This document shows, in pieces, positions 21,918 to 55,009 of a stretch of DNA of 55,009 nt. The position numbers and the translations under genes were made by a program. The notes below the pieces were generated by a model. That model searched no databases, was not told where the DNA came from, and saw only the letters and a list, made by a program, of their open reading frames with translations. Positions within the stretch are counted from its first letter, which is position 1, and every line of letters begins with the position of its first letter. The DNA comes from a virus (taxonomy: Duplodnaviria > Caudoviricetes), in the IMG/VR virus record IMGVR_UViG_3300050010_000073, positions 1 through 55,009 of that record; one strand, given 5' to 3'.

Positions 21918-23696
21918 TCAGTTCCTCTGACTATCTAGGGCAGACATTAGAGAGCCATAGATTAGCTTGTTGGTGTTCACTGACGGCCCAGATGGTATAG
22001 CATGGGGATCTAAGTTCTTATTGTACATGAGGGCCATCTGTTCGGGATCATCTTCCAATACTAGTTCGGGATGTTGTTGCTTTAAGATATCTCTTATGTT
22101 AGCAAAGTGTTTGAGAGCCATCTCTTCTTGAACATCGAACCTTTTGCTGTCCATATCTTTCACTAGTTGTTCTAGGGATACTACTTTCTCTTTGTTGGAA
22201 GTATCATCTAGGACTTTCTTATCAGCATTGAGTAGTTGATCTACTCTGTAGTCTGAGAGGGCTAGTATGTCAGCATCTGCTCTATCAGGACTAGGAAAGC
22301 CTTCTGCTTTAGCTTCTTTCTTAGACTGTAAGAAGATCCTATTGTTTCCGCCCTCCGTCTGTTTGTAGTGTCTAGCTACTAACTGATCCTTTGTTTTTGG
22401 ATCCATCTTACCATCTAAAGCATCTTCTCCCCACAACAGTAAGCACTCTTCTACCAATCTTTTGACATTATACCACATCTCAGCTCCCTTATTGCCATAA
22501 GCTCTCTTATCAAAAGCTGGTGTTTGATTCATTATACGACGAATGTTCCAGCCCATCTTCCTTAGATTGTCTATAATACCCCTACCTACTCCACCATCAT
22601 CTGCCTTAATATGGGTTGAATCTTTATCTATCCCCTGAGCTTTCAACTCTCTGGATATGAGGTCGGCCGTAACTGTAGTATCCTTTTCTATGAAAGCATA
22701 CCTATAAACTCTCTTGTTGCCCTGCCAAATGGATATAACACATTCATCTCCCCCCGCTGCTAGATCTATTCCTACTTCTTTGGGCCACTTCTCACCTATG
22801 CGTATCTTACAGAGTTCTAAACATTTAGTTAGAGCATCTTCTGTTATGACTACCTGCCCTCCTATCGATGTAAAGAGGGCTTCATGCTTCGACCTGTAGT
22901 ATGCCGAATTGATCCCATACTTCTCTGCATCGACTGCCCTATCCTCTTCTGATAGATGTGGACAATCTTTGGATGTGACCCTAAAGATGTTGGGCCAGTG
23001 ATTAAAAGCCCAATAAAAATCTCCTTTAGGTTCTCCGGGACTAGAGACCATGAGATAGTGGGTGTAACCAGTACACCTCCCAAGCGCACTGAAAATATCG
23101 TCTTTGACACTTTTACATTCATTGGCTATTAGGACTAGTTTGGCTCCTGGCTCTATAGGATGATAACCTTCTGCCCGGCCGGCCTCATCAGTAGCAAAAA
23201 GTATAATCTCTGAACCTGTTAGTAGACACTTGATATTCCTCTGATTGATCTTAAAGATCTTATTGTTCCAGAACTTATTTATCTTTTCGCAGAGGTTTCT
23301 GATGTATCTTTCTGTTTGAGTTGTAAGTTGAGGTCCAGAAGAAGAAGTAATAACAACAGTACATTTGATGTTGCTGACAGCCATAAATACGGCGAAGGGA
23401 GCCACAATGAAGGAGTCTTTACCACTACCATTAGCGGCACACAAAACGAACTTAAGGGGATGCTTATCACTAGCAGGTAAGCAACAAATAGCTTTATTAA
23501 CTTTGATTTGCCAGTTGTGAAATCGGACTGTTCCTTCTGAGAGTTGTTTATCATAAAAAGCTAACATGTCTGCACTATCTTTATGGATAGTAAGAGCCTG
23601 TAACTCACTGTCCTTTAAGCCCACTTCTTCATCGGCTATGAAGGGGAGGTCGGCTAAGCCTTGTCCGCCTACTGCATCTGGAGTTTTTGAGAGCAT
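21918..23696 (-). CDS. terL: Terminase large subunit
   Basis: Walker A AANGSGKD, EGYH, SSPG; nuclease motifs GIDLAAGGD, DDGGVG and SPDRADA. Confidence 0.9.
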   Translation of the reverse strand: MLSKTPDAVGGQGLADLPFIADEEVGLKDSELQALTIHKDSADMLAFYDKQLSEGTVRFHNWQIKVNKAICCLPASDKHPLKFVLCAANGSGKDSFIVAPFAVFMAVSNIKCTVVITSSSGPQLTTQTERYIRNLCEKINKFWNNKIFKINQRNIKCLLTGSEIILFATDEAGRAEGYHPIEPGAKLVLIANECKSVKDDIFSALGRCTGYTHYLMVSSPGEPKGDFYWAFNHWPNIFRVTSKDCPHLSEEDRAVDAEKYGINSAYYRSKHEALFTSIGGQVVITEDALTKCLELCKIRIGEKWPKEVGIDLAAGGDECVISIWQGNKRVYRYAFIEKDTTVTADLISRELKAQGIDKDSTHIKADDGGVGRGIIDNLRKMGWNIRRIMNQTPAFDKRAYGNKGAEMWYNVKRLVEECLLLWGEDALDGKMDPKTKDQLVARHYKQTEGGNNRIFLQSKKEAKAEGFPSPDRADADILALSDYRVDQLLNADKKVLDDTSNKEKVVSLEQLVKDMDSKRFDVQEEMALKHFANIRDILKQQHPELVLEDDPEQMALMYNKNLDPHAIPSGPSVNTNKLIYGSLMSALDSQRN

Positions 23697-24594: not shown

Positions 24595-24770
24595 GTCTTA
24601 GTTATGTTAGGGGTTGTATAGAAAGCAATTTGACTGGCAGGAGATTGTATGTGTAAGTTTATTGTTTCTCTACTAAACTCCTGTTGTATTTTTTGCATTT
24701 GTTCAGATAGTAGTATTGTATGTTGAGTCTCAATTACTTCTATAAGTTCTTCTTGCATACCCTCCCTGAA

Positions 24771-24786
24771 AGCAACTCTCATGCCA
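24771..24786 (-). promoter_or_regulatory. sigma54 promoter for the late operon
   Basis: TGGCAT-GAGAG-TTGCT on the minus strand, upstream of the terS-like gene. Confidence 0.85.
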
Positions 24787-24938
24787 CCCTCCCTGTATGT
24801 GCTATTCCTCCCTCCTTCTTCTACTTCTTCCTGCCTCCTACAGCTAATCTTTAGTATTTGTGCTTTGGAAATCGAATTAAGGAAATTTGTGTGAGAGTGT
24901 CAGTTGTGAAAGCACCGCATGACTCTGGGTCCCTACCT

Positions 24939-25659
24939 GTCAATACTAGCTATTCTTAGGTGTCAAGTATAGCTTATAGTTGATTAGATAGGAGTCAAGT
25001 ATATGGTGGAAGTGTCAAGCATACAACCGGCTGTGTCAACTACATACAGCTAGTGTCAAGCATACACATTCTAGTATTGACAGACGGGCTGTATGCTTTA
25101 CAGTAAGGAGTCAACTATACAGTAAGGAGTCAAGCACACAGTCTGTCAATACTAGTTCGCTCCTTACAAGAATTTGCTTGACTACTCTAGTCAATACTAG
25201 GTCGTTGATACCCTGCCATATACTTGACAGAGCCTGAAACACCCCTTAGTTTCTCGGAGGGTGGTAGTGATACCTTGTGATACCTTGTAATATAATGTAT
25301 TATAGTATATGAGTCTCTTCTCTCTATAGACAGCTAATTTACCATACCCCCCCCAGTAACACCCAAGGTATCACGGAGGTAGTTTTATAGTATTGACGGG
25401 GCTAGATAGGAGTCAAGCCTAGAAAGTAAGATAGTATTGACTAGGCTAGTCAATACTAGAAGGCCAGAAAGCTAGTCAATACTAGCAAAAAAAGTCATAA
25501 GTCATTGACTATCAACGGGTTACGCACAAATGAGACACTTCCCTTAGTTCCTTAGGTCTCGTCCCTTTCCATATACATAAACCCTTGTCACTACAACATT
25601 TCCCCGCCGTCCCATAGTTGCGACTCTACGCTTGACATTGGCGGTAGTGTATACTTGAC
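24939..25659. repeat. Dense array of GTCAA/TTGAC motifs (frequent extended form GTCAATACTA)
   Basis: 21 copies counted by eye in ~720 bp, several spaced 20-21 bp apart. Confidence 0.85.
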
Positions 25660-25693
25660 TAGTCATAAGTCATTGCCTAGCAAGGAGTTACGC
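25493..25693. promoter_or_regulatory. Two 33-bp direct repeats containing IHF-consensus-like sites
   Basis: 25493-25525 and 25661-25693 are 29/33 identical; TATCAACGGGTTA (25510-25522) matches WATCAANNNNTTR. Confidence 0.6.
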
Positions 25694-25707
25694 TTCTCAT
25701 AAATGAG

Positions 25708-25723
25708 TGGCACAAGGGTTGCT
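25708..25723 (+). promoter_or_regulatory. sigma54 promoter for the early region
   Basis: TGGCAC-AAGGG-TTGCT, exact consensus, intergenic. Confidence 0.85.
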
Positions 25724-25880
25724 CTATATGTGGCAGTTCTTTCACACAACCGGGAGCGCGGGCAAGGGTGGTCAGAGCTAGGCTAGACGTTCTACACGCT
25801 AGACCTCAGTGAGACGGTAAATAGGCTACCAAAGACCTATCAAGTCAGCGAGTATATGGGACTACGCGAATAGACGCGAC

Positions 25881-26303
25881 AAGACGGCTCTAATGGGGTG
25901 GCTTGCAATACAAAACAAAAAGGCAAGTCAATGAATCAAATCAATCCCAAATCAGTTATGTCCCGGCTTACTCTCGAACACCATGATGCTGGTAGTCATT
26001 ATGATTACATCACCAAAGCTTATGAGGATCTGCCGGAACATTTCAAAGGTAGTGCAGTATTCGTGGTGAGCGGCCAGTCGTCAGAGAGCACTGTTGAAGT
26101 GCGGCTCTCACCTGAAATCAGTGTCAAAATCGTTGCCCTAATTGCAGATGAGATGGCGAAAGCCTGTCAGGCTGCAGTGGAGCAAAACAGGAACTTGATG
26201 CTCCAAAGCATCATGGCTTGCACAAAGCCACAACTCAACGCCCCTTCCTCCACACCACAATCCTAGTTAATCCCATTGTAAGCCATTCCATTAGAGCCGT
26301 CTT
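25881..26303 (+). repeat. Long-range RNA stem 1 (25881-25909/26275-26303) enclosing a CDS
   Basis: 29 bp with 3 G-U and no other mismatch. Confidence 0.9.
25931..26266 (+). CDS. Early hypothetical protein
   Basis: ATG at 25931; lies entirely inside stem 1. Confidence 0.7.
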   Translation: MNQINPKSVMSRLTLEHHDAGSHYDYITKAYEDLPEHFKGSAVFVVSGQSSESTVEVRLSPEISVKIVALIADEMAKACQAAVEQNRNLMLQSIMACTKPQLNAPSSTPQS

Positions 26304-26308
26304 AAAAC

Positions 26309-27109
26309 AAACTTGTGGCTAACTTTGCTGGTGCTATTCTATAGCCACAAGTGGACAAGCAAGAATTCAATCCTTGCCGATATATACTAGTTAAACTAGT
26401 CCCTGTTAGTCCACTTGTAACCTATAGAATAACATATGCAAAAAGTTAGCACCAAAGAACTGGCAGCTTCAGGAGTGTTGGCACAAAACATTGACAGCAA
26501 TGCAAGCGGTGCCCGTGAGATTAACCTCATGGACATTGTGAAGCATTGCACCAGCGTCAGTGTCAAAGGCAGTGAATCAAACCTGCGTTTACGGACTAAC
26601 CTTAACAGGAGCAAAGTCCGTATAGCTTGCTTCTCTGAATGGAAGTCCAGGGCAGGTGTTGAGCAGGTGGCACGTGTCCCAGCCGAAATTGCGGATGCAA
26701 TTGAAGCTATGTTGAATGAACTTCAGCAAGCTCTCATAACCTCACAGTTCCGTGGAGACAACATCCTAAGCTACAGCCGCCGCCCAGTTCACAAAGCCAA
26801 GACCAATAGCTTTGCAATGCGACACAATCTTGTGTCAGAAGATGCAATGCTCTTACAAGACCAACTTATGGTTTGCAAATGGTCTTTAGGCGATGTTGAG
26901 CATCGGCTGGCTGCGGACAGGCTCAAGTTCTCTGAGGACAACATTCGTATTGTCAACCTCAAGAAGAACATTGCCGCTCTCACCACCACGAAGCTATACT
27001 TGGAAGCTTGTATCTCTAATCTGAGCAAGCAAACTCCAATGCCTTCAACCCCAGTAAGCTAGTCTCCCTACTGACATAGAATAGCACTAGCAAAGTTAGT
27101 CACAAGTTT
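26309..27109 (+). repeat. Long-range RNA stem 2 (26309-26342/27076-27109) enclosing a CDS
   Basis: 34 bp with 2 G-U and no other mismatch. Confidence 0.9.
26436..27062 (+). CDS. Early hypothetical protein
   Basis: 208-aa ORF inside stem 2. Confidence 0.75.
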   Translation: MQKVSTKELAASGVLAQNIDSNASGAREINLMDIVKHCTSVSVKGSESNLRLRTNLNRSKVRIACFSEWKSRAGVEQVARVPAEIADAIEAMLNELQQALITSQFRGDNILSYSRRPVHKAKTNSFAMRHNLVSEDAMLLQDQLMVCKWSLGDVEHRLAADRLKFSEDNIRIVNLKKNIAALTTTKLYLEACISNLSKQTPMPSTPVS

Positions 27110-27115
27110 AAGAAA

Positions 27116-27323
27116 GCTGGATTGAATGGAGTAGAGTGAAAGCATAAATAAACAGGTTAAATGTGACTCCTTTGTTCGTTCAATCATAACAGAGTAGAAG
27201 GTTTGAACGCGGGAAGCATTGTCTAGCAATAGATATGTGTGTAAGCTACCTTCAAATGAGATTATGCTCTTGCATTACGACATAATACTAGCACTGCCTC
27301 TCCTCTATTCCATTCAATCCAGC
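27116..27323 (+). ncRNA. Stem-3-enclosed structured RNA candidate
   Basis: 21-bp closing stem (27116-27136/27303-27323, 1 G-U) and an internal GCAA-tetraloop hairpin; no ORF in the track. Confidence 0.6.
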
Positions 27324-27366
27324 AAAACAAGGAACAATCTAGCTGCCCGCTGCGGGCGGCAGAACC

Positions 27367-27437
27367 TTGTCTCTTGGTAAAGTGTCCTGAGTTGTCTCTT
27401 GGTAAAGTCTCTTGGTAAAGTGTCCTGAGTAAAGTCC
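27367..27437. repeat. Short tandem repeats of TCTCTTGGTAAAG / TGTCCTGAG
   Basis: Three copies of TCTCTTGGTAAAG and two of TGTCCTGAG, following a GC-rich hairpin. Confidence 0.85.
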
Positions 27438-27449
27438 TAAAGCAATTGG

Positions 27450-27567
27450 GTGTTAAATGGAGTGCATGGTTTAATGCAATAAAAGACTAGCAGTTTATCC
27501 CTTTTCTGCTAGTCAGAATAGGCAATTAGCATTGAATAATCTAATTATCATGCATTCCATTTAGCAT
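27450..27567 (+). ncRNA. Stem-4-enclosed structured RNA candidate
   Basis: 21-bp stem (27450-27470/27547-27567, 4 G-U) with an inner GACTAGCAG/CTGCTAGTC hairpin. Confidence 0.6.
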
Positions 27568-27734
27568 AATGCCAATGCTATAGACATAATTGCTTGCTCA
27601 CATCTTTCTACAAGATTGTTGGGTGTTCCGTATGGTAGTCGGACTCAAGCTCATTAGGTAGCAGATAATCAGCATAGAAGTGCTCTCATTTGCATCGAGA
27701 GTAAAGATGCCAGCAAATGCTTCATTAAATACTT

Positions 27735-27750
27735 TGGCACACTTCTTGCT
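27735..27750 (+). promoter_or_regulatory. sigma54 promoter
   Basis: TGGCAC-ACTTC-TTGCT, exact consensus, intergenic. Confidence 0.85.
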
Positions 27751-27817
27751 TGTATGGCTTGTAAGCCGCGTCTGCTCTAATACCTATGTTAGCTCTAATC
27801 CCTAAATGAATCATGTC

Positions 27818-27942
27818 ATGGTGGGACTAATGGAGTAGAGTAGTGTTGTAATATCGGGACTACAGAGATCAACGCCTGTGGCCGAAAATAGCATACAGCC
27901 TAATAAGCACATGCTGCTACTCTATTCCATTAGTCCCATTAT
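27818..27942 (+). ncRNA. Stem-5-enclosed structured RNA candidate
   Basis: 28-bp stem (27818-27845/27915-27942, 5 G-U). Confidence 0.6.
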
Positions 27943-28121
27943 ATGCGAGGGTAGTAGAGTAGGGTAACCTCTAGGATAAAGGCAGCATGATCCTGCCTAT
28001 AATTAAATAAGCAATCGGCCCAGAAAGAAGATCACTGCAAATACGAGTATGCTTCTGTGTATGGGCCGACCCTTTTGGAAGTGTGAATTAAATAGAACTT
28101 TCAACCGCAAATCAAATAACA

Positions 28122-28391
28122 ATGACTAACCTCATCCTCGCTACAATCACTGCTTATGTAGCAACAGGTCATCTTAATGCAGCTGGGCATAAGCCTATCC
28201 CTGGAATTTCTATTGCCGTCCCTCGCTCTGTTCCCTTGGGTAGTCAAGTAACAATCAACGGCCACACCTATATAGCAGATGATAGAACTGCACGTAAATA
28301 TGATGGCCGCTTTGACATTTTTATGGATAGTCGAAAGGCGGCTATTCAGTGGGGTAAACAAACAAACATAGTAACAATAAGAACAAAATGA
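28122..28391 (+). CDS. 3D-domain protein (lytic transglycosylase-like)
   Basis: TITAY...IAV....PLGS.V.I.G..YIADD.......FDIFM......WG pattern; the first Asp position (IAVD) is replaced by Pro. Confidence 0.75.
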   Translation: MTNLILATITAYVATGHLNAAGHKPIPGISIAVPRSVPLGSQVTINGHTYIADDRTARKYDGRFDIFMDSRKAAIQWGKQTNIVTIRTK

Positions 28392-28573
28392 AAAAAATCA
28401 AATCGAGAAGAATTGGAAAACATTCTTAAGGTTAAGAATGGACCAGAAATCTATGCTCTTTTAATGGGAGCTGTTAATTTATTGATGGATGAATATGGTC
28501 TTTCACCACAAGAAACGGTTCAGTTCATCATAGAACAAAACTAAACAAACAAACAACAGAAAGTAGTAATCCT

Positions 28574-28879
28574 ATGCCACCTACAATCACCGATAGAGCA
28601 CAAAATGCTCCAGGCTACCTGCGCACTCGCACTAATGTATCTCGTCAACTTAGGACTCAAAATTTGGGCCCTATGACTCAACAAGAGTTCCAAGAGATGT
28701 TAGCTCACATTTGCCATCACACTACCCGAGCCATAAGAACTGTAGAGTTTGGTCCTGGCAACAAAGCCACCATATACTTTTTCGGCAATAGCCAAGACAA
28801 CATGGCTCGCTATTCTTTCACTCCCACATACAAACCAGTTAAAGCAATCTCACCCTCAATGCCCACTTTATGTGTATAG
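28574..28879 (+). CDS. Hypothetical protein
   Basis: 101-aa ORF on the early strand. Confidence 0.6.
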   Translation: MPPTITDRAQNAPGYLRTRTNVSRQLRTQNLGPMTQQEFQEMLAHICHHTTRAIRTVEFGPGNKATIYFFGNSQDNMARYSFTPTYKPVKAISPSMPTLCV

Positions 28880-28933
28880 GCAGTCCAAATTAAATTGGAC
28901 ATAAGTCAAACCTATAAAAGAAAGAATTAAATT

Positions 28934-29599
28934 ATGATTGGATACAAACTAACAGATCAAAACATGCGAACTCGCAACAACGTTCAATGGAAACTTGGAA
29001 TTGAACGAACAGTTAGAGGTTCATTTAAAAAACAGCAACTTTGCACACCTTATTGGTTACATTTTTATGTTGAACCACGATTAGCTATAATAATGAATCC
29101 TATAGGAGCAAATTTTAAGTCACCTCGTTTGTTTAAGTGTAATGTAGGTGGTAAAATTCAACACGAGAACAAAGGAAGACTAAAATCTGGTTGCACCAAA
29201 CTAACTTTAATTGAAGAATTAACTTTACCAGTTATTTCAAATAACCAGAAGGTTGCTTTTGGTATTTTAAGCAGCCTAAAAGTGTGTAGGGATCCTGATT
29301 TTGTTTTTTGGGCAAATAATTGGATAAATAACATAGATCGAAGTTATACTACTAATGCTGCTGCTTATACTGCTGCTTCTCATGCTACTTATGCTGATGC
29401 TGCTGCTACTGCTTCTGCTTATGCTGCTGCTGCTTATGCTGCTTATGATGCTCATGCTGCTCATGCTGATGCTGCTGATGCTGCTCATGCTGCTCATGCT
29501 GCTGCTGCTTTTTATGCTACTTATGCTACTACCACTGGTAGCTCTTTTAACCACAAAGATATATTAATCCTGTTAGACCAAGCATTAAAAATAACATAA
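28934..29599 (+). CDS. Hypothetical protein with Ala/Tyr/Asp/His low-complexity tract
   Basis: GYKLTD...WLHFY domain plus a GCT-rich repeat at ~29350-29530. Confidence 0.75.
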   Translation: MIGYKLTDQNMRTRNNVQWKLGIERTVRGSFKKQQLCTPYWLHFYVEPRLAIIMNPIGANFKSPRLFKCNVGGKIQHENKGRLKSGCTKLTLIEELTLPVISNNQKVAFGILSSLKVCRDPDFVFWANNWINNIDRSYTTNAAAYTAASHATYADAAATASAYAAAAYAAYDAHAAHADAADAAHAAHAAAAFYATYATTTGSSFNHKDILILLDQALKIT

Positions 29600-35461: not shown

Positions 35462-36346
35462 ATGAGTTCATATATACAAGCACCATCAGCAGGAGGCCAA
35501 TCACCTGGTAGTGATATATCAAAGCAGAAATGGGTAGAAGCTATTCAAGATCTCCTAGATGTAGGAGCAACAGACCAAGCTAAGAGGATTGATAAAGAGC
35601 ACAACGTGGGCTTCTTCTCTAAAACTACAAAAGCTCTAAGATATTTAGACAAGTTCATTACTTGTAATCTCCAGATGCTCAAGCTTAAAGAACAAGTCTT
35701 AAGACTAGCTGATCCTACAATTACCGATCCTGTTCTTATTCTAGGAGAAACTGGCACAGGTAAAGAGTTACTGGCTCATGCTCTTCATGCTGACAAAATA
35801 GGTAACTTTGTAGAGATCAATTGTGCTGGACTGCCCGAGCATCTAATAGAATCAGAACTCTTTGGTTATGTAGATGGTGCTTATACAGGAGCTAAGAAAG
35901 GAGGTCAAGCCGGACTCATAGAGTTAGCTGGACAGGATAGCAAAGGCAACCAAGCTAGAGGTTCCCTGTTCTTAGATGAGATAGGTGAACTTCCCTTACA
36001 GGTTCAAGCCAAACTATTAAGAGTCTTGAATGATGGCAGAGTACGGAAGGTCGGCGGAAGCACATATGAATGGGTAGACTTCCGTCTTATATGTGCCACA
36101 CACCAGAGTATAGATGCACCAGACTATAAGCATTTCCGCAGAGATTTGTATCATCGTATCTCTCTTATAGAGCTTAGAACTCTTCCTCTCATACAGAGAA
36201 AAGAAGACATCAAGCCTATCATAGAGAGTTTGCAGATAGGTGCCCATGATAAGCTGTTCGATAGATACATAAAAGATAATACTTTGGGTGGCAATGTCAG
36301 GGACTTGCAGAAACTAGTTAGAAGATTACAATTAGAACTATTATGA
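35462..36346 (+). CDS. sigma54-interaction (bEBP) AAA+ transcriptional activator lacking a DNA-binding HTH
   Basis: GETGTGKE, INCA, ESELFG, GAYTGA, LFLDEIG, QAKLLRVL, FRRDLYHR and GNVRDL; the protein ends ~12 aa after sensor II. Confidence 0.95.
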   Translation: MSSYIQAPSAGGQSPGSDISKQKWVEAIQDLLDVGATDQAKRIDKEHNVGFFSKTTKALRYLDKFITCNLQMLKLKEQVLRLADPTITDPVLILGETGTGKELLAHALHADKIGNFVEINCAGLPEHLIESELFGYVDGAYTGAKKGGQAGLIELAGQDSKGNQARGSLFLDEIGELPLQVQAKLLRVLNDGRVRKVGGSTYEWVDFRLICATHQSIDAPDYKHFRRDLYHRISLIELRTLPLIQRKEDIKPIIESLQIGAHDKLFDRYIKDNTLGGNVRDLQKLVRRLQLELL

Positions 36347-47472: not shown

Positions 47473-48927
47473 ATGGATGAAAAGCCAACAACAGTATTGT
47501 CCAACTATGATCGTTGGATGCTCCTTAATAAGGACTGTACCGCACCCTTGTCTTTTATAGATTGGAGCTTCTACTATCTTATAGCAGCTGCCTTACAGAG
47601 GCGCACGTGGATGGGAGACGAAGATCACAGACCCCTCTACTCCAATATCTATACTACTCTGGTTGGCCCTCCAGCTAGTGGTAAAGGTGTAGCCATAGCC
47701 CCAGTCAATAAACTGTTAAGATGGCATAAATTAGCTAAGGCCGGCAATAGCAGGAATGGAGAGATAACTCCAGAGTCCATGCACAAGGAGAGTGAAGTAG
47801 AATCTCTACTAGCTTCTCATCCTGATCTGGCTCAGAAGTTCATGAAGGATAGGAAAGAGATACACGAAGAACACCTACTTATTCCTTTGGGCGCTAATGC
47901 TACTACTTTTGAATCCCTAGCAGAAACAATAGCGGCGTCTGTCCGCCGTATCAACTACATGCGTTATGATAAAACCCTTTCTAAAGAAATACGAGAAACT
48001 TACTGTCATTGTAGCTTGGCATTTGTACTCACTGAGTTATCGAGCTTATTTAAGAGGCAATCGGAAAACATCGTTAATCTTATTACAGATATGTATGATT
48101 GTGTGCCCTACACTTACAAGACTAAAACCAAGGGTACAGATCATATTGCAAAAGGGTGTCTCAACTTTATGGCTGGAACAACATTGTCTTACATGGAAGA
48201 AGTCTTCTCTGATCGTATTATCAATGAAGGTTATGCTTCTCGAACATTCTTTATTGTTGAAAGTGGCCCAAGATTTTTTAGATGGGAAACAGCCCGCTTC
48301 ACCGAAGAGCAAAATAGGGCAGAACAAGAGCTAGCTGATTACATAAAACGTTTATCTACAGTCTATGGTGAGATGCACTTCTCTCCTGAGGCTGATACCT
48401 TCTTAAAGCATTGGTGGGAACAGGACATGAAGGATGGTAAGAGAGCTAATTTAGATCCAAAGCTAGAACCCTATTATGGTAGAAAGAATATACACCAAAG
48501 AAAGATGTGTATGATTCTACATGCCTCCGAGCCTTCTTTCTTCTTGGAGCCAGAAGGCTCTAAGACTAACATGGAAATTCCCCTAGCTACAGCCCAGAAA
48601 GCTCTATACGTATTGGAGACTGTAGAAAAGAAGATGCACTTGGCTCTTACATTTACAGCATCCAACCCATTATTTAAGCCTGCACGTAGGGCGATGGCTA
48701 TAATAGAGAGGGCCGGCGATAGAGGAATAACTTGGAAAGACTTGCAGTATGAGATGTGGGAGTTCTGTGATGTATCTACACAGATGAAGCCCATTATAGA
48801 ACACTTGATGGGCGTAGAGAAGGTAGAGGCTGTAGAGAATCCCAATGAGAATCTGCAGTGTAAAGGACTCCTATATAGGATACCTCAGATAGCTATAGCA
48901 GAAGAAAAAGTAGAAACCCCGGATTAA
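47473..48927 (+). CDS. DUF3987/YfjI-like P-loop helicase-like protein
   Basis: NIYTTLVGPPASGKG, ELSSLF, DMYD, AGTT and GYASR motifs. Confidence 0.7.
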   Translation: MDEKPTTVLSNYDRWMLLNKDCTAPLSFIDWSFYYLIAAALQRRTWMGDEDHRPLYSNIYTTLVGPPASGKGVAIAPVNKLLRWHKLAKAGNSRNGEITPESMHKESEVESLLASHPDLAQKFMKDRKEIHEEHLLIPLGANATTFESLAETIAASVRRINYMRYDKTLSKEIRETYCHCSLAFVLTELSSLFKRQSENIVNLITDMYDCVPYTYKTKTKGTDHIAKGCLNFMAGTTLSYMEEVFSDRIINEGYASRTFFIVESGPRFFRWETARFTEEQNRAEQELADYIKRLSTVYGEMHFSPEADTFLKHWWEQDMKDGKRANLDPKLEPYYGRKNIHQRKMCMILHASEPSFFLEPEGSKTNMEIPLATAQKALYVLETVEKKMHLALTFTASNPLFKPARRAMAIIERAGDRGITWKDLQYEMWEFCDVSTQMKPIIEHLMGVEKVEAVENPNENLQCKGLLYRIPQIAIAEEKVETPD

Positions 48928-51900
48928 GGAATCACCCCAGACTTAGCTTCATTAGCTATCTTATGCTTCATGTAGTCAATAACTCTATCTGTGGCTTCCT
49001 GCTGTCCCTTGGTCATTTTCATATAATTGTAGTATGAAGCAAACTCAGGAGCCTTCTCTTCAGGATCAGGCACAGTCTGGTAGCCGTTCTTCTTTAGAGC
49101 GTCGAGCCTATCAAGCAGCACTTGAGGCTTATCTCCATACTTACCTATTAGATTGTGAACTAGAGGAGGCAACTGTTCAGTTACTGCTTGCTTTAAGTCC
49201 ATGTTTCTGTGAAACTGTTGAGCACCCAAAGTGGTATAAGGGTTGACTGCTCCCATCAAAGATTGATCTTCATAAGGCAAGCCAGAAGACATTTGAAACC
49301 TTCTTAAGTCCTGCTCCTTCTGGGTCTGCTGGTGTCTAGCATAGTCTTGGGGCATTATCTCTCCACCACTAGCTTTTTCTAAGTTGACTAGACCAACTCT
49401 AGCAATTTGAACATTCTGTTTAGTCCAATCAAGTAAAGCTTTTTGAGTTAGAGGAAGCACTCTGTCCCACCAGTTATCTCCTATGTCTCCATTCTTGAGG
49501 GCTGAAAGAAGATTACCTATATGTTCCATTGTGCTGGTAGCTACTTCATCCAGGGGAAATATAGTTCCCATTCCAGCAAATTTATTCTTATGCATCACAT
49601 CATCAAGACCTTTAAGTGTACTAGTCATTACACCACCAAAGCCAGCCAAAGAATTAAGCTCTAAAGCTGAGTAAGCAATACTGTCTGCGTTCTCTCCATA
49701 AGTTCTTCCATACAATCCCTTCTCTTTGTTAGCTGCCGAAGCCATAATCTCTGATATGTCAGGGACTGGTGTTTTTGTATCTAACAAACCTTCCTTCATC
49801 TTCTTAATAGCATATCCCCCCAGTGTAGCACCCAGTAAAGAGGTAAGCAAAGGAGCAAAGTTACCCTTAGTAGCAGGAGTCCATGCGTTGCGCATCCAAG
49901 CATTAGTAGAAGAAATGTTCCAGTGAGCCAGATGCAAGAAAGCAGAAATCTCCGTATCCTTAGTCATAAAACCCGGCAAAGTCCTAGGATCTCCAGAGCC
50001 ATGAATAGTGTTAGAAAATCTGCTAGCCATGGCTTTTACCTCATCCGGGCTATAGCTTTTGCCCACTTGATAATCGGGATCATAATAGCGAAGAAACTTA
50101 CCAGCCTCGGCATCACCAGTAGAAGCTCTAGCTATCTTACTAGCTATGATATGTTCTCCAGCTATTTGTAGATTACCAGTAAGCATCCTATCAGTAAAGC
50201 CATTCAAAGTATAAGCCTTATAGGAAAGATCTGATAGGCCTTTCAATCTATCAGCAATACTAGAGTGAGCATCTAGTAGCATTTTTAAATTGTCTCCAGC
50301 CGTCTTAGGTGATACTCGTGTTCCTCCAGCATTAACAGCATCCAAATAGCCCTCATTGAAGTGGGTCAAACCTTTCATTATTACACCTAAAGCTTCAGCA
50401 GGATTAGAGATAGCTAAACTAACTCCTTGTGCTATAGAAGAGATAAGCTTATGAATCTGAGTACCAGGCCCTAGTATAAGTGTAGTAGATATATGCTCAG
50501 CTGCACGAGCATTAGGCCGGCCGAACACTGAAGAGCCTACTTCTCCTCTGTAGTGTTCTGTTATATCCTGTACCTTGCTGTTGCCCATCTGAGAAGGATT
50601 AGCTTGTCTTACATCCTCATCTAGGGGTTTGCCCCATCCATCTTCTTTGTAACCCATACTGGCTGCCATTTCTGGATTGCTTTCTACATGCTTATACCAA
50701 GAGTAATCAGCTCCAAACCTATGACTATAAGATTGTAAAGCTTTGCCTAGATCAGCTTCTCTCATAGAAGGAGGAAGAGATATACCTTCTTGCTTTCTTA
50801 TACCATTAAAATAGCTATCGTTGCCTCCAGCTTTCCTGTTGGCTAAATCACCACGTATAGAAGATGTTAGATCATCCCATCTGTCTTGAGCTTGCTTCTC
50901 TGTAGCTCCATTAGCTTGCTGATGTTCCATCCAATCCTGATGCCACTGCTCTATCTTAGAGCTATCGGCCGGGCTATTGATTCTAAGAGTATCAGCTTGC
51001 TCTTTACCTAGTAGAGAGGGGAAGAAGTTCTCATCCTGTTTGAATTGACGCTTATTACCATTAGAGGTTATTACAGGTTGATCTGTTCCTTCCGGGCCAC
51101 GTTCTTCGCCCATTTTACCTAGCAAGTTACGTATCTGTGTATAGGCTTGTTGCTCTTTAGTAGTCCTTAAAGAAGAGGTCATATCTTGCTGCTGATCTCT
51201 GGTAGCTTCTAGGGCTTGACGAACATTAGTACGTTGGGTCGGCGATAGCTCTTTAACCAGCCCAGAGAATTGATTTTCGTATTTACCTGTCATAGCCTGC
51301 TGCTCATTATAGAGCTTAGTGAATTGATCGGCTATATGTCCTCCCTGTTCTCCTGGAATAGAACGTCTTAGACTATCAATGGAAGCTGCAGTAGGTAGGA
51401 ATAGCCGACCTTCAACACCAGAGCCAGAAACTTTATCTTTCTGCTCTCTCAAAGGCTCCTGTTCTCCAGACTGATAGCGTATATCTGGATTTGAAGAATC
51501 AAAAGTTCCTCTGTTACCAATAGCTGACTTAATTTGTTCTGGATGAAAAACAACATAAGCATCCTTACTACCTGGAGCATTAAAACCTGTTCTCCAGTTA
51601 GTTTTATATTTTATACCATCATATCCCATTTTTTCAAGTGCTTCTGAAAAATCCATTCCAAGAGAATTTTTTAATCTTACACCATTTACATTATCTAGTG
51701 CCCAAACTCGTTCATTGCCCTCCCAACGAGGACTAAACTTTAGTGGTGCAAGATTTCTTATAGCAGTTTTATATACCAAATTATCACCAATCATGGTCTG
51801 ATTACCAAAATCTGCTCCTGTGACTTTATTTAACTTCGATACAAAATTTTGTAAATCATCTGATTTTATTGTATCTGTCTCGAATGGACGTTCAATTTTT

Positions 51901-54900
51901 ACATGTAAAGGTAAAACACCACCTTTAATAGCAATAGACTCTTTTGCATATGTTGAAGCAAGTTTTGGATTAGGTGTTACATATACACCCTTACCAAATA
52001 AATTTCCTCCATGATTCCCTCTAGCTATATCAAAACTTTTTATGTCAGGTGTTGGTGTCCCATGATAAACCGTTAAAGGCTCTCCATGTTCATCTACAAC
52101 TTTAGAGTTGCCAAACCACTTCTTGAACTCTGGAGTATCAGTTTGTTTCTTAAGAGGCTCCTGTCCTTCATCTTGTTGTCTACCGGGTCTAGCTGCTTTC
52201 CATGTTTCGTATGCACTAGTAACAGCCCGGCGGAAAGGTAGGCGTTCATTGTTCTTGAGCTGTCCTGACTTAACTAGATCATGTATAGTATCACTAGCCA
52301 AGGGTTCATCTCCTTTAGCTATTGCCCTGGCTCCATGCATACCCAATATTTCTTGTTGTGAATGACTCTCATCAGGAAATAGAGCTTTGCCTATTACTCT
52401 AGCATGTGCTTTCATGTCAGTAACAGTCTTATCTTCTGGAGCTTCATAAGAATCTTTATCAGCATACTTATATTGCTCTGGGCCAGTATAAATGGGCTTC
52501 TGCCCAGCTTCTTGTGTTCTTGGAGTTTGTTTAGGCAAGAAACTATCATCAGGAAGTTCCCAAGGTTTAAGATTTGAATCTTTTGGATGAACACTATAGT
52601 GATGTTCAAAGCCTCTTTCATCCTTTTGATTAGGTCCACCAACACGTTTTAATCCCAATTTATCCATTGCTTCAGCAACGCTAGATGAACTTTTAATAGC
52701 ATTTACTACATCTGGATGCTGATCTTGTAAGTTTCTAGCTGTAACATAAAGAGTTTGATCTTGAGGAAATCCTTCATCTATATTACTATTTGCCAAATTC
52801 ATTATAGAACGTACTCTTTCATTAATAGGAGGTTTAGTGTAGATCTTATTCCTTTCACTCAGTACTTCTCTTTCATTTACTAATTCTTGATCTATGGGTA
52901 TTCCTTGTCTGATCTGCTCATGCAAAGCAGTATTAATCTGATCAATACGTCTTTTATCTTCTTCAGGATTATGTAGAGGCTTCTGCCCAGCTTCCTGATT
53001 ACGGGCGGCACTCTTAGGATTAAGTTGATCATCATAATTATCCAATGAAACACCATGATCTATTAGTCTTTTTCTAGCACCACCCTCTTCAGCTAAAGCT
53101 TCCATATATTCTGGAGAGTCTTGTCCATATCTCTCCTTAGCTTCTTGTCTAAGTCTAAAAGCTGCATTAGATTCTTCTAAGAGTTTTTTGTACTTTAACT
53201 CCTGTTCTTTATATCCTTCATCCAACTGTCTAACACCAGTAGGTTGTCCTCCCAAACTCCCCTGTCCTGCTTCTTGATTTCGAGGAGCATACTTATCCCT
53301 TTCAGCTTCTCTAACACCACCAACTGCTCCAACTCCGTGTGGCTTCAAGTGAGTTTCATAGAAGGGAGCATCCTTAAAGAAACGATTGTGCAGTAAGCGG
53401 TAAGCATCTTCGGTAGTAGCATTACCCCAGCGTAGTTTGGCAGCCGATAACATCTGCTTATAGATGTCCTTAAAACCATTTATGCTCTCACCAGCATGTT
53501 GCTTAAAATACTGACCAGCATGTTCAGCCAAGAACTCTTCATGCACTCCCCTTTCAGCTCCATTACGTCCAGTCTTAGAAGATGGTAAGCCCATCTTAGT
53601 AGGGTCGGCAATAGCCTGTTCAGGAGTAACTCCTTCTATCTTCTTTCTAGCTAGCTCTTGTGCTGTCCACTTAACAAGGTCAGGAGACTTATCTACAGTA
53701 TCAAGCATGTGTTGAGCAGCTTCTCTATCTTGTAGGTGGGGAGAATTAAGTAGATCATGGAAGAAGATATGGCCGCCCGGTTCATGGAAGAAGGTATCCA
53801 GTTGCTTGTAGGTCATCTTAGCTACAGCCTCTTTGACACCATCCCGTAGGTAGGAGATACCATTGATAGGCACACCCTCTGAGTTGACTAGCTTACCAGT
53901 AGTAGGTTCAATGCTTATGTTTCTTTGTAGTCCAGCAGCTTTAAATAGACGAGTAGCCCAATCAGCCCACAGAGGAACTACCTTGCCCTCTGGGTCTTTA
54001 GTGGTAGCTCCAGCAGCTTTAGCAGCAGCGGCTTTCTCTTTACTCTCAGGAACAGGAGTAATAGAAGCAGGCTGTTCTCTGGGAGTTTGAGAAGGTTCTG
54101 TCCCAGGAACGTAGCCATTATTTCTATTCTTAATGGTCTCCATCTGTCCTAGTATATCATTATAGTCCTTCTCGAAGTTGGGATGATTAAGATCAAGTCC
54201 AGACATTCTAGCTTGGAGCTTCTTAAATTCCTGACTATCATCACTCTCTAAAGGCTTTTGCCCAGCCTCTTGACCTAAAGCAGGTGGAGGGGTAGATTGA
54301 TCTCTAAAACGTTTCAATTCAGCTATACGAGCTTGATCTTCTGCACTAGGTGGTGGCTCAGGAGGATTAAGCTCTTCTGTAGTAGCAGGCATTTCTCGGC
54401 GAGGAGGATATAATTGTCTCTCTGGCCCTATTTCACCTTCATGTCCAGTAGGTGGAGTCCAAGGCTTAGGAGGTAATCCACCCTGTCCTGCCTTATCCTC
54501 TGTGCCAAACATGTGTTCATCTGCCATCCTTCTTAGTGTAGCTTCATCCAATCCAACAGTCTGTTTAGCTTCTCCGGGTTCTTCGGGAGTATAAGTTTGT
54601 TTTAATAAGCCAGGAGCTTTCTCTTTCAGGTAGTTATCTAACTCATCTTTGGATCTTACATACTCTACTTCTCCTTCTGTCTTGCTAGGTCTGGTAGCAG
54701 TGAAAGGAATAAGAGGAGCTTGATCGCTATCAGCTATATCAAACTCTTCTCTTGCTTTAGCTTGAGCAGCAGCTTCTTTAGGAGATAGAGCTGTGGTTTG
54801 AGGCTGATTAGCTTTTATGGTAGCTTGATTGCCTTCAGTCTTTTGGCTGACCATTTGTTCTAATTGGTTACCTACTCTATTGGCTACAGGGAATCCTAGT

Positions 54901-55009
54901 TTTTCTCCTATCCTATTAACATCACTAAATATACCACCCATAGCAGCTTGCTTGGCAATTTCACCAACTAACTGTTTAGTATCAAAAGGTTGATTAGATT
55001 GTTGCTGTT
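48924..55009 (-). CDS. Giant polyvalent virion protein (zincin-like peptidase, ADP-ribosyltransferase-like domain, large C-terminal domain); true start at 860 across the junction
   Basis: FFHEPGGH...EEFLAE (~53500-53790); FKKWFGNSKVVD..GEPL.VYHGT...GVY...GYDGI...VVF.PEQIKSAIGN.GTFD..NPDIRY (~51480-52145). Confidence 0.85.
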   Translation of the reverse strand, partial: QQQSNQPFDTKQLVGEIAKQAAMGGIFSDVNRIGEKLGFPVANRVGNQLEQMVSQKTEGNQATIKANQPQTTALSPKEAAAQAKAREEFDIADSDQAPLIPFTATRPSKTEGEVEYVRSKDELDNYLKEKAPGLLKQTYTPEEPGEAKQTVGLDEATLRRMADEHMFGTEDKAGQGGLPPKPWTPPTGHEGEIGPERQLYPPRREMPATTEELNPPEPPPSAEDQARIAELKRFRDQSTPPPALGQEAGQKPLESDDSQEFKKLQARMSGLDLNHPNFEKDYNDILGQMETIKNRNNGYVPGTEPSQTPREQPASITPVPESKEKAAAAKAAGATTKDPEGKVVPLWADWATRLFKAAGLQRNISIEPTTGKLVNSEGVPINGISYLRDGVKEAVAKMTYKQLDTFFHEPGGHIFFHDLLNSPHLQDREAAQHMLDTVDKSPDLVKWTAQELARKKIEGVTPEQAIADPTKMGLPSSKTGRNGAERGVHEEFLAEHAGQYFKQHAGESINGFKDIYKQMLSAAKLRWGNATTEDAYRLLHNRFFKDAPFYETHLKPHGVGAVGGVREAERDKYAPRNQEAGQGSLGGQPTGVRQLDEGYKEQELKYKKLLEESNAAFRLRQEAKERYGQDSPEYMEALAEEGGARKRLIDHGVSLDNYDDQLNPKSAARNQEAGQKPLHNPEEDKRRIDQINTALHEQIRQGIPIDQELVNEREVLSERNKIYTKPPINERVRSIMNLANSNIDEGFPQDQTLYVTARNLQDQHPDVVNAIKSSSSVAEAMDKLGLKRVGGPNQKDERGFEHHYSVHPKDSNLKPWELPDDSFLPKQTPRTQEAGQKPIYTGPEQYKYADKDSYEAPEDKTVTDMKAHARVIGKALFPDESHSQQEILGMHGARAIAKGDEPLASDTIHDLVKSGQLKNNERLPFRRAVTSAYETWKAARPGRQQDEGQEPLKKQTDTPEFKKWFGNSKVVDEHGEPLTVYHGTPTPDIKSFDIARGNHGGNLFGKGVYVTPNPKLASTYAKESIAIKGGVLPLHVKIERPFETDTIKSDDLQNFVSKLNKVTGADFGNQTMIGDNLVYKTAIRNLAPLKFSPRWEGNERVWALDNVNGVRLKNSLGMDFSEALEKMGYDGIKYKTNWRTGFNAPGSKDAYVVFHPEQIKSAIGNRGTFDSSNPDIRYQSGEQEPLREQKDKVSGSGVEGRLFLPTAASIDSLRRSIPGEQGGHIADQFTKLYNEQQAMTGKYENQFSGLVKELSPTQRTNVRQALEATRDQQQDMTSSLRTTKEQQAYTQIRNLLGKMGEERGPEGTDQPVITSNGNKRQFKQDENFFPSLLGKEQADTLRINSPADSSKIEQWHQDWMEHQQANGATEKQAQDRWDDLTSSIRGDLANRKAGGNDSYFNGIRKQEGISLPPSMREADLGKALQSYSHRFGADYSWYKHVESNPEMAASMGYKEDGWGKPLDEDVRQANPSQMGNSKVQDITEHYRGEVGSSVFGRPNARAAEHISTTLILGPGTQIHKLISSIAQGVSLAISNPAEALGVIMKGLTHFNEGYLDAVNAGGTRVSPKTAGDNLKMLLDAHSSIADRLKGLSDLSYKAYTLNGFTDRMLTGNLQIAGEHIIASKIARASTGDAEAGKFLRYYDPDYQVGKSYSPDEVKAMASRFSNTIHGSGDPRTLPGFMTKDTEISAFLHLAHWNISSTNAWMRNAWTPATKGNFAPLLTSLLGATLGGYAIKKMKEGLLDTKTPVPDISEIMASAANKEKGLYGRTYGENADSIAYSALELNSLAGFGGVMTSTLKGLDDVMHKNKFAGMGTIFPLDEVATSTMEHIGNLLSALKNGDIGDNWWDRVLPLTQKALLDWTKQNVQIARVGLVNLEKASGGEIMPQDYARHQQTQKEQDLRRFQMSSGLPYEDQSLMGAVNPYTTLGAQQFHRNMDLKQAVTEQLPPLVHNLIGKYGDKPQVLLDRLDALKKNGYQTVPDPEEKAPEFASYYNYMKMTKGQQEATDRVIDYMKHKIANEAKSGVIP
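54883..55009. repeat. Terminal overlap identical to 1-127
   Basis: Exact match to the start of the window. Confidence 0.95.

Follow-up and report, generated by a model that had tools for sequence, protein, structure and literature searches.

Phage T7 is the textbook example of early transcripts that are cut by RNase III, and perfect duplexes of 21-34 bp are expected substrates of this enzyme in almost any bacterium. RNase III cuts the polycistronic early RNA of T7 as well as precursor rRNA (PMC8708148; PMC6938266). As these two papers describe, the T7 sites (R0.3-R1.3, with R1.1 as the model) lie in an early operon transcribed by the host polymerase, whose gene-sized RNAs are cut at intercistronic double-stranded signals that resemble each other within the one phage; these signals are local intergenic hairpins with internal loops, which lead to single-strand cuts. 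The stalks of 16S and 23S rRNA, processed by RNase III or Mini-III, are long-range helices formed by the sequence flanking the product and stand in tandem on one precursor. RNase III also cuts long-range intramolecular duplexes in Bacillus subtilis, across hundreds of nucleotides within one mRNA, at scattered host sites linked to decay or regulation (bioRxiv 10.1101/2023.03.12.532304). In T4-type phages, small early genes are delimited by PeSL cassettes, which are repeated similar stem motifs made of a promoter and a local terminator hairpin and are proposed to be shuffled by DNA recombination (PMC2839356). Here, an array of five long RNA stems is compared with these systems. It lies at positions 25,881 to 27,942 of IMG/VR record IMGVR_UViG_3300050010_000073, a complete uncultured peat-soil phage (Duplodnaviria; Caudoviricetes) of 55,009 bp with a 127-bp direct terminal repeat; the whole of this stretch is called the window below. 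The region is transcribed, its products appear as separate contigs without the stem arms, and the design is common to related phages. We consider it rather probable that the five helices serve as stalks for the processing of a single polycistronic early transcript, which is organized like an rRNA operon and cut by host RNase III.

The stems are 29, 34, 21, 21 and 28 bp long, and each closes off a unit that is called a cassette here. Their 133 pairs comprise 118 Watson-Crick pairs, 15 G-U pairs and no mismatch, and a minus-strand reading turns all 15 G-U pairs into A-C mismatches. A first-pass annotation, made from the letters of the window alone, had proposed these coordinates, lengths and pairs, with every deviation from Watson-Crick pairing being G-U on the plus strand, and recomputation reproduced them exactly. 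Four of the stems carry an 8-bp core, AAUGGRGU with its partner, which is taken up below. The arms, linkers and main cargos are as follows.

25881-25909, plus strand: 5′ arm of stem 1, 29 nt, core AAUGGGGU; pairs with 26275-26303 through 26 Watson-Crick and 3 G-U pairs, no mismatches, in the minimum-free-energy (MFE) fold
25931-26266, plus strand: cargo of cassette 1, a 111-aa open reading frame (ORF) from the ORF list
26275-26303, plus strand: 3′ arm of stem 1, core AUUCCAUU; starts 8 nt past the stop codon
26304-26308, plus strand: linker between stems 1 and 2, 5 nt, A-rich
26309-26342, plus strand: 5′ arm of stem 2, 34 nt; pairs with 27076-27109 through 32 Watson-Crick and 2 G-U pairs, the longest long-range helix of the genome
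26436-27062, plus strand: cargo of cassette 2, ORF of a 208-aa early protein with homologues in related phages
27076-27109, plus strand: 3′ arm of stem 2; starts 13 nt past the stop codon
27110-27115, plus strand: linker between stems 2 and 3, 6 nt, A-rich
27116-27136, plus strand: 5′ arm of stem 3, 21 nt, core AAUGGAGU; 20 Watson-Crick pairs and 1 G-U pair with 27303-27323
27149-27298, plus strand: cargo of cassette 3, a non-coding RNA of about 150 nt delimited by RNA contigs; no ORF, Rfam family or tRNA
27303-27323, plus strand: 3′ arm of stem 3, from pairing and fold
27450-27470, plus strand: 5′ arm of stem 4, 21 nt, with core; 17 Watson-Crick and 4 G-U pairs with 27547-27567 in the MFE fold
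27547-27567, plus strand: 3′ arm of stem 4, closing a 76-nt non-coding cargo
27818-27845, plus strand: 5′ arm of stem 5, 28 nt, with core; 23 Watson-Crick and 5 G-U pairs with 27915-27942
27915-27942, plus strand: 3′ arm of stem 5, closing a 69-nt non-coding cargo

Uninterrupted runs of Watson-Crick and G-U pairs with a loop of at most 1500 nt were searched on both strands of the whole window, and the five stems turned out to be the top five long-range runs of the plus strand. The next-best runs on this strand reach at most 19 nt and are about half G-U, and the best run of the minus strand is 20 nt long with 5 wobbles. Twenty dinucleotide shuffles of the window gave a pooled total of one run of at least 21 nt, versus five observed within 2 kb. 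Folding, which the first-pass annotation had suggested as a check, bore the array out: all five stems appear in MFE folds, which were computed for its parts and for the whole of 25870-27330. Every stem provides at least about 20 bp of helical RNA, or about two turns, which is the size expected of a bacterial RNase III substrate. Also as annotated, stems 1, 2 and 3 are separated by only 5 and 6 nt. Linkers of this length are too short for a promoter, so that stems 1-3 must share one precursor. No promoter-like or terminator-like sites were found at the stems.

The array thus has the layout of rRNA stalks: the two arms of a helix flank each cargo, and the short linkers join stems 1-3 into a single precursor. 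Mature RNA may lack the arms here too, as the contigs described below hint, although contigs cannot prove RNA ends. It differs from rRNA stalks in that the cargo is phage mRNA and small RNAs with no ribosomal context and in that cleavage is predicted. Unlike the local hairpins of T7, the arms flank whole cargos, lying 69-733 nt apart with no internal loop, and form perfect duplexes, three of which enclose non-coding RNA: cassettes 3, 4 and 5 have 166, 76 and 69 nt between their arms and contain no ORF. In contrast to the scattered host sites of B. subtilis, the stems are arranged in tandem, bracket their cargos and are conserved in a phage family. They also differ from PeSLs, being long-range, leaving no room for a promoter and carrying an RNA-specific G-U signature. 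Tandem stalks that bracket whole genes or small RNAs and are conserved across an uncultured phage family were not found in open-access full text.

Related phages were collected through the large terminase, whose homologues run into the hundreds and lie on contigs of about 50-55 kb; 27 of these were aligned, and the alignment retrieved 80 IMG/VR loci. As in the window, the terminase diverges from the early region in all 80. The loci were scanned in the same way as the window, counting wobble-bearing stems of at least 20 bp. Of 34 such stems, 33 are on the early side, 29 in the sense of the early transcript and 4 antisense to it, and the larger structural side has only 1; at least one occurs in 21 of the 80 loci. 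Among the 29 are a few AT-rich palindromic repeats, possibly DNA sites (L035, L046, L054 and L079). The relatives have two classes of stems, like the window: brackets around one ORF, with loops of 300-830 nt, and stems enclosing 50-130 nt without an ORF. ORFs of at least 80 aa are bracketed by runs of at least 18 bp in 9 of 562 cases on the early side versus 0 of 526 on the structural side.

The clearest case is the gene in cassette 2. Homologues of the 208-aa protein, with 20-29% identity to it, are encoded in L007, L008, L067, L027, L070, L066 and L006, and form a family of fast-evolving early proteins of about 200 aa with an invariant L-N in an LNR-type motif. Including the window, seven of these eight genes lie inside stems of 25-37 bp whose sequences are mutually unrelated (L006 has none), and the 3′ arms of these brackets begin 6-13 nt past the stop codon. 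Between close relatives, the arms differ at 0-6 nt, and identity of the sequence between them is 66-86%, or 99% for one hairpin pair. The pair changes in close relatives, as pairwise counts, comprise 10 one-sided and 3 two-sided ones, all of which keep pairing; no pair is broken. Judging from these comparisons, the bracketing structure is conserved through complete sequence turnover, and its strand is evident.

Transcription was traced in public sequence data. Six metatranscriptome runs (X13, X15 and X17-X20) contain the region; they come from peat and permafrost and belong to six different studies. Many DNA runs contain it as well. Contigs of four RNA runs from four studies were placed on 25000-29000; these are assembled contigs, not reads. 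Cassette 1 is represented in all four studies (25945-26281, 26089-26282, 26032-26273 and 26112-26239), cassette 2 by contigs reaching from 26360 or 26365 to 27018, and cassette 3 in three studies by contigs at 27156-27285 (depth 140), 27167-27298 (depth 2787) and 27149-27298 (depth 178). The contigs of cassette 3 are the deepest of the region and those of the coding cassettes have depths of 3-290, depth being a hint only that cannot rank genes strictly. RNA contigs also cover the genes after 28040, and one further segment of the array is expressed.

27589-27794, plus strand: expressed spacer between stems 4 and 5; contig of run X15, depth 61, with an adapter remnant behind 27794

The intergenic stretch 25000-25944 received no RNA contig in the four runs, and this speaks against carry-over of DNA. 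Cassettes 4 and 5 and the stem arms are uncovered by RNA contigs, which is not evidence of their absence. Contig ends repeat between studies, at 26281/26282, 26360 and 27298; the contigs of two studies stop at 26281/26282, which is 7-8 nt into the 3′ arm of stem 1. The longest runs of Watson-Crick pairs alone within the arms are 8-16 nt, and the arms share no 31-mer, so that collapse of inverted repeats during assembly does not explain the contig breaks. Adapter remnants abut 27149, 27285 and 27298, all between the arms of stem 3. All nine remnants (9/9) have one orientation, with what we take to be the read-2 primer ahead of the insert and the read-1 primer behind it. This orientation puts the first mate on the minus strand, which in the usual dUTP libraries means plus-sense RNA. 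The contigs and the adapters together thus indicate transcription of the plus strand, a point on which the first-pass annotation had made its proposal depend.

That annotation had further held that the arms are under selection as RNA, and this claim stands. Selection of the helices as plus-strand RNA is supported by the G-U asymmetry in the window and in relatives, by changes that keep pairing, by arms that are better conserved than the cargo and by plus-sense transcripts. The covariation that it called for was found in part, as the 13 changes, with no broken pair, in the stems of relatives.

The following course of events would fit these data. Host RNA polymerase would start upstream of 25881 on the plus strand, the contigs supporting transcription and the start site and the polymerase being presumed. 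Each 3′ arm, as it emerges, would pair with its own 5′ arm, as predicted by folding and supported by comparison, and close off one cargo in turn: the 111-aa gene, the 208-aa gene, the RNA of about 150 nt and two of about 70 nt. Double-strand-specific RNase III of the host would then cut the 21-34-bp duplexes on both strands. The precursor would thereby split into separate RNAs whose levels are free to differ, and the remnants of the arms may be trimmed, at least in cassette 3, where the contig ends hint at it. Presumably, such processing would let the levels of adjacent units vary independently, set small RNAs free and regulate how the 208-aa gene is translated. A processing signal of some kind, as the first-pass annotation had it, is consistent with RNA contigs that break at every stem and with the RNase III-type processing of rRNA; the sequence specificity that it ascribed to the signal is not borne out.

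Several points weigh against cleavage by RNase III. First, cleavage itself was not seen, the RNA data being assembled contigs; low coverage could also cause the breaks at the arms, as could very stable duplexes that are poorly primed or reverse-transcribed. Second, the contig ends have no common register across the stems: they lie 7-8 nt inside the arm at stem 1, 18-23 nt past the inner end of the arm at stem 2, and 13 and 5 nt past the inner ends of the arms at stem 3. Third, the depth of the cassette 3 RNA is unexplained, given that this RNA without its arms has ordinary stability (z +0.9). Fourth, RNase III of the host is assumed, and the host is hinted at only by two contigs of metagenome-assembled genomes (MAGs), labelled Alphaproteobacteria and Proteobacteria, both without the early region. 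Finally, a generic double-stranded RNA nuclease does not explain the core with its fixed G-U pair, nor the 12-nt identities with distant phages described below.

The stems might instead remain uncut and hold the ends of each unit together for insulation, for shielding from nucleases or Rho, or for gating of translation, with a competing local helix in cassette 2; this is unlikely, although it accounts for some features of the array. The 3′ arms lie 6-37 nt past stop codons, and the 5′ arm of stem 2 has a second potential partner nearby.

26420-26455, plus strand: nearby partner with which the 5′ arm of stem 2 pairs imperfectly (inverted repeats I5 and I11), covering the ribosome-binding site (RBS) and AUG of the 208-aa ORF

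When 26305-26470 (166 nt) is folded alone, as in a nascent transcript, the 5′ arm pairs with the RBS/AUG stretch (-52.3 kcal/mol, z -6.2); in the full-length fold, it takes the distal 34-bp partner instead. L007 and L008 likewise contain a nested hairpin, in competition for the innermost 9 nt of their bracketing 5′ arm. These folds raise the possibility of a switch at the 5′ arm of stem 2 that would make translation of the 208-aa protein depend on completion or processing of the cassette: the arm would first pair with the RBS and AUG, and formation or cleavage of the long-range stem would then free translation. Such a switch would work with cut stems as part of the events above. Against stems that stay intact speak the duplexes themselves, which at 21-34 bp are expected to be RNase III substrates, and the contigs: none bridges an arm at any stem in the four RNA runs, adjacent units differ widely in contig depth, and the cassette 3 RNA ends between its arms. 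In addition, three of the five stems enclose no gene.

Another possibility is that a sequence-specific factor, such as a Mini-III-like enzyme of the host or a phage protein that escaped recognition, cuts or binds at the AAUGGRGU/AUUCCAUU duplex by reading its sequence, including the G-U pair. AATGGRGT has four plus-strand copies, all in the 5′ arms of stems 1, 3, 4 and 5, its partner ATTCCATT is located in the 3′ arms of the same stems, and G-U occupies core position 7 in all four, just as the first-pass annotation had noticed. Moreover, AAUGG/CCAUU is found in stems of L071 and L074 and a G-U variant of it in L037, and 12-nt identities link the 5′ arm of stem 3 with a stem arm of L071 and the 5′ arm of stem 5 with a stem arm of L012. 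Among about 1,450 arm pairs, these identities exceed the longest match in two controls (10 nt). Even so, we regard a specific factor as improbable. Stem 2 lacks the core, its likeness to the motif in reverse orientation being loose and needing an indel; AAUGG/CCAUU occurs in stems of at least 18 bp in only two of the 80 loci; L071 has G-C in place of the G-U pair; and the stems around homologous genes have unrelated sequences. From the outer end of the stem to the core it is 6-11 bp, and the distance between core and contig ends is not fixed. Neither an RNase III domain nor a double-stranded RNA-binding domain (dsRBD) was found among the proteins encoded in the window. With cleavage by RNase III, the core is most likely the trace of a stem module that was duplicated or exchanged in this lineage, and it may be a locally favoured cleavage context rather than an obligatory recognition sequence.

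The core also contains an AUG. In stem 1, this AUG opens a 13-codon ORF at 25893-25934, whose UGA overlaps the AUG of the 111-aa ORF (AUGA); stems 3 and 5 have AUG-GAG-UAG at their cores, and the core of stem 4 gives a 5-codon ORF. These reading frames may be coincidence or hidden mini-ORFs.

Whether the inverted repeats act as DNA, i.e. as recombination modules that shuffle cassettes, as terminal repeats like those of miniature inverted-repeat transposable elements (MITEs) or as cruciforms, bears on another suggestion of the first-pass annotation, that the stems serve cassette exchange. Cargo is not conserved between relatives, yet stem fragments are common to them, and shuffling has a precedent at the regulatory cassettes of T4-type phages (PMC2839356). 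Searches of the 80 loci by blastn with cassettes and spacers gave nothing meaningful, and the three short cassettes aligned with the hairpins of L071 and L012 revealed no common cargo. Stem identities of 12 nt with dissimilar cargo imply that stem modules seem to be inherited or exchanged independently of their cargo. Exchange of cassettes is thus hinted at by these two identities only, and a DNA role is very improbable: every one of the 15 deviations is a G-U pair of the same strand, which has a chance of 2^-15 if transitions fall on either arm at random, and there is no transversion; the same strand bias is seen in relatives (29 versus 4); there are no target-site duplications or flanking direct repeats at the arms as expected of a MITE; and the arms lie within a transcribed unit. 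Circularisation of the excised cassettes into closed RNAs, which the first-pass annotation had also considered, is scarcely credible: it has in its favour only the geometry of a stem that brings both cassette ends together, and is opposed by the lack of reported back-joined joints in the four RNA runs (contigs can miss rare forms), by the lack of a recognised RNA ligase among the window proteins, whose sole ligase is of the ATP-dependent DNA ligase type, and by the adapter-abutted linear ends at 27149 and 27298. The same two ends, lying between the arms, contradict closed-ended products for cassette 3, whose arms appear to be removed.

A wider reading of the processing stalks is doubtful but worth stating. 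Possibly, a family of uncultured phages of 50-55 kb builds its first early transcript like an rRNA operon, with host-takeover genes and small RNAs each excised via its own stalk; a stalk module could be carried from one phage to another, non-coding cargos, among them the very deep cassette 3 RNA, would be early phage RNAs with a function on the host, and the core with its fixed G-U pair would be the handle for a still unknown factor. If the finding is confirmed, early processed units and small RNAs of the early phase could be located in metagenomic phage genomes by a simple sequence rule; the array would also be a natural model of end-to-end pairing that sets the fate of an mRNA, and a source of compact insulating parts for synthetic operons.

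Similarity searches characterised the cargos and the phage as follows. The 111-aa protein has no Pfam or PHROG match, and neither has the 208-aa protein, for which all Atlas matches are below 0.9 with TM scores below 0.5. Rfam gave no match at the gathering score in the window and none at E up to 5 in 24600-28200, and ARAGORN found no tRNA gene. A DNA search of cultured phages gave no match to the window, and the best identity of its terminase to a cultured phage is 33% (Akkermansia phages). Protein scans of viral contigs (with the large terminase and the 208-aa ORF) and of metagenome contigs (with the 208-aa ORF) revealed no close relatives of the window. The nearest relatives, with terminases 60-70% identical, occur in Logan assemblies only, and strain variants are represented by DNA runs that contain 46-85% of the sequence words. 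Of two profiles from the alignment of the 208-aa family run against viral contigs, one gave no confirmed locus and the other only loci already known. A degenerate 17-nt arm motif was also tried on viral contigs and rejected: it had 39 matches, of which only that in the L071 contig had a partner arm, the rest being chance. In L035, L045, L046, L054 and L079, AT-rich palindromes of the form GTTGAYTAAT...ATTARTCAAC occur in pairs about 80-120 nt apart, some 4.4-5.6 kb upstream of the terminase, and probably function in DNA binding rather than as RNA stems.

Within the window, which is described as a phage of lytic type, the structural genes occupy the minus strand from about 24,600 down to 1, and the early and replication genes the plus strand from 25,900 to 48,900, including a helicase, the ATP-dependent DNA ligase, a PD-(D/E)XK nuclease, DNA polymerase A, ThyX and a primase. 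The five stems form the very head of this early operon and diverge from the terminase. Three other genes are given here with their positions.

21918-23696, minus strand (structural block): large terminase, Pfam Terminase_6C
35462-36346, plus strand: AAA+ activator with a sigma-54 interaction domain, Pfam E 2e-48
48924-54941, minus strand, far end of the window: polyvalent protein of 2005 aa with an ART-PolyVal ADP-ribosyltransferase domain

The encoded AAA+ activator suggests that middle or late phage genes use the sigma-54 polymerase of the host, and the polyvalent protein is probably an injected or virion-borne multi-domain protein. Downstream of the array, an RNA contig of run X15 at 28504-28860 shows 13 differences from the window and continues into unlike sequence after 28860, so that a related strain with a different downstream neighbour is expressed in the same sample.

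Two stretches near the stems contain repeats. Between stems 3 and 4, at 27338-27430, a short G+C-rich hairpin is accompanied by three copies of a 24-nt direct repeat, and the stretch is uncovered by RNA contigs.

27369-27392: 24-nt direct repeat, copy 1
27394-27417: 24-nt direct repeat, copy 2
27407-27430: 24-nt direct repeat, copy 3

Ahead of stem 1, a gene-free region of 1.3 kb (24600-25880) lies between the divergent structural and early blocks, and two repeat families crowd it at 24900-25700 in both orientations. The family GTCAATACTAG has about 9 copies there, some of which form palindromes of the type TAGTATTGACTAG/CTAGTCAATACTA, and the family (G/T)GTCAAG(T/C)ATA has about 8. These families look like operator or iteron clusters of a control region or an origin.

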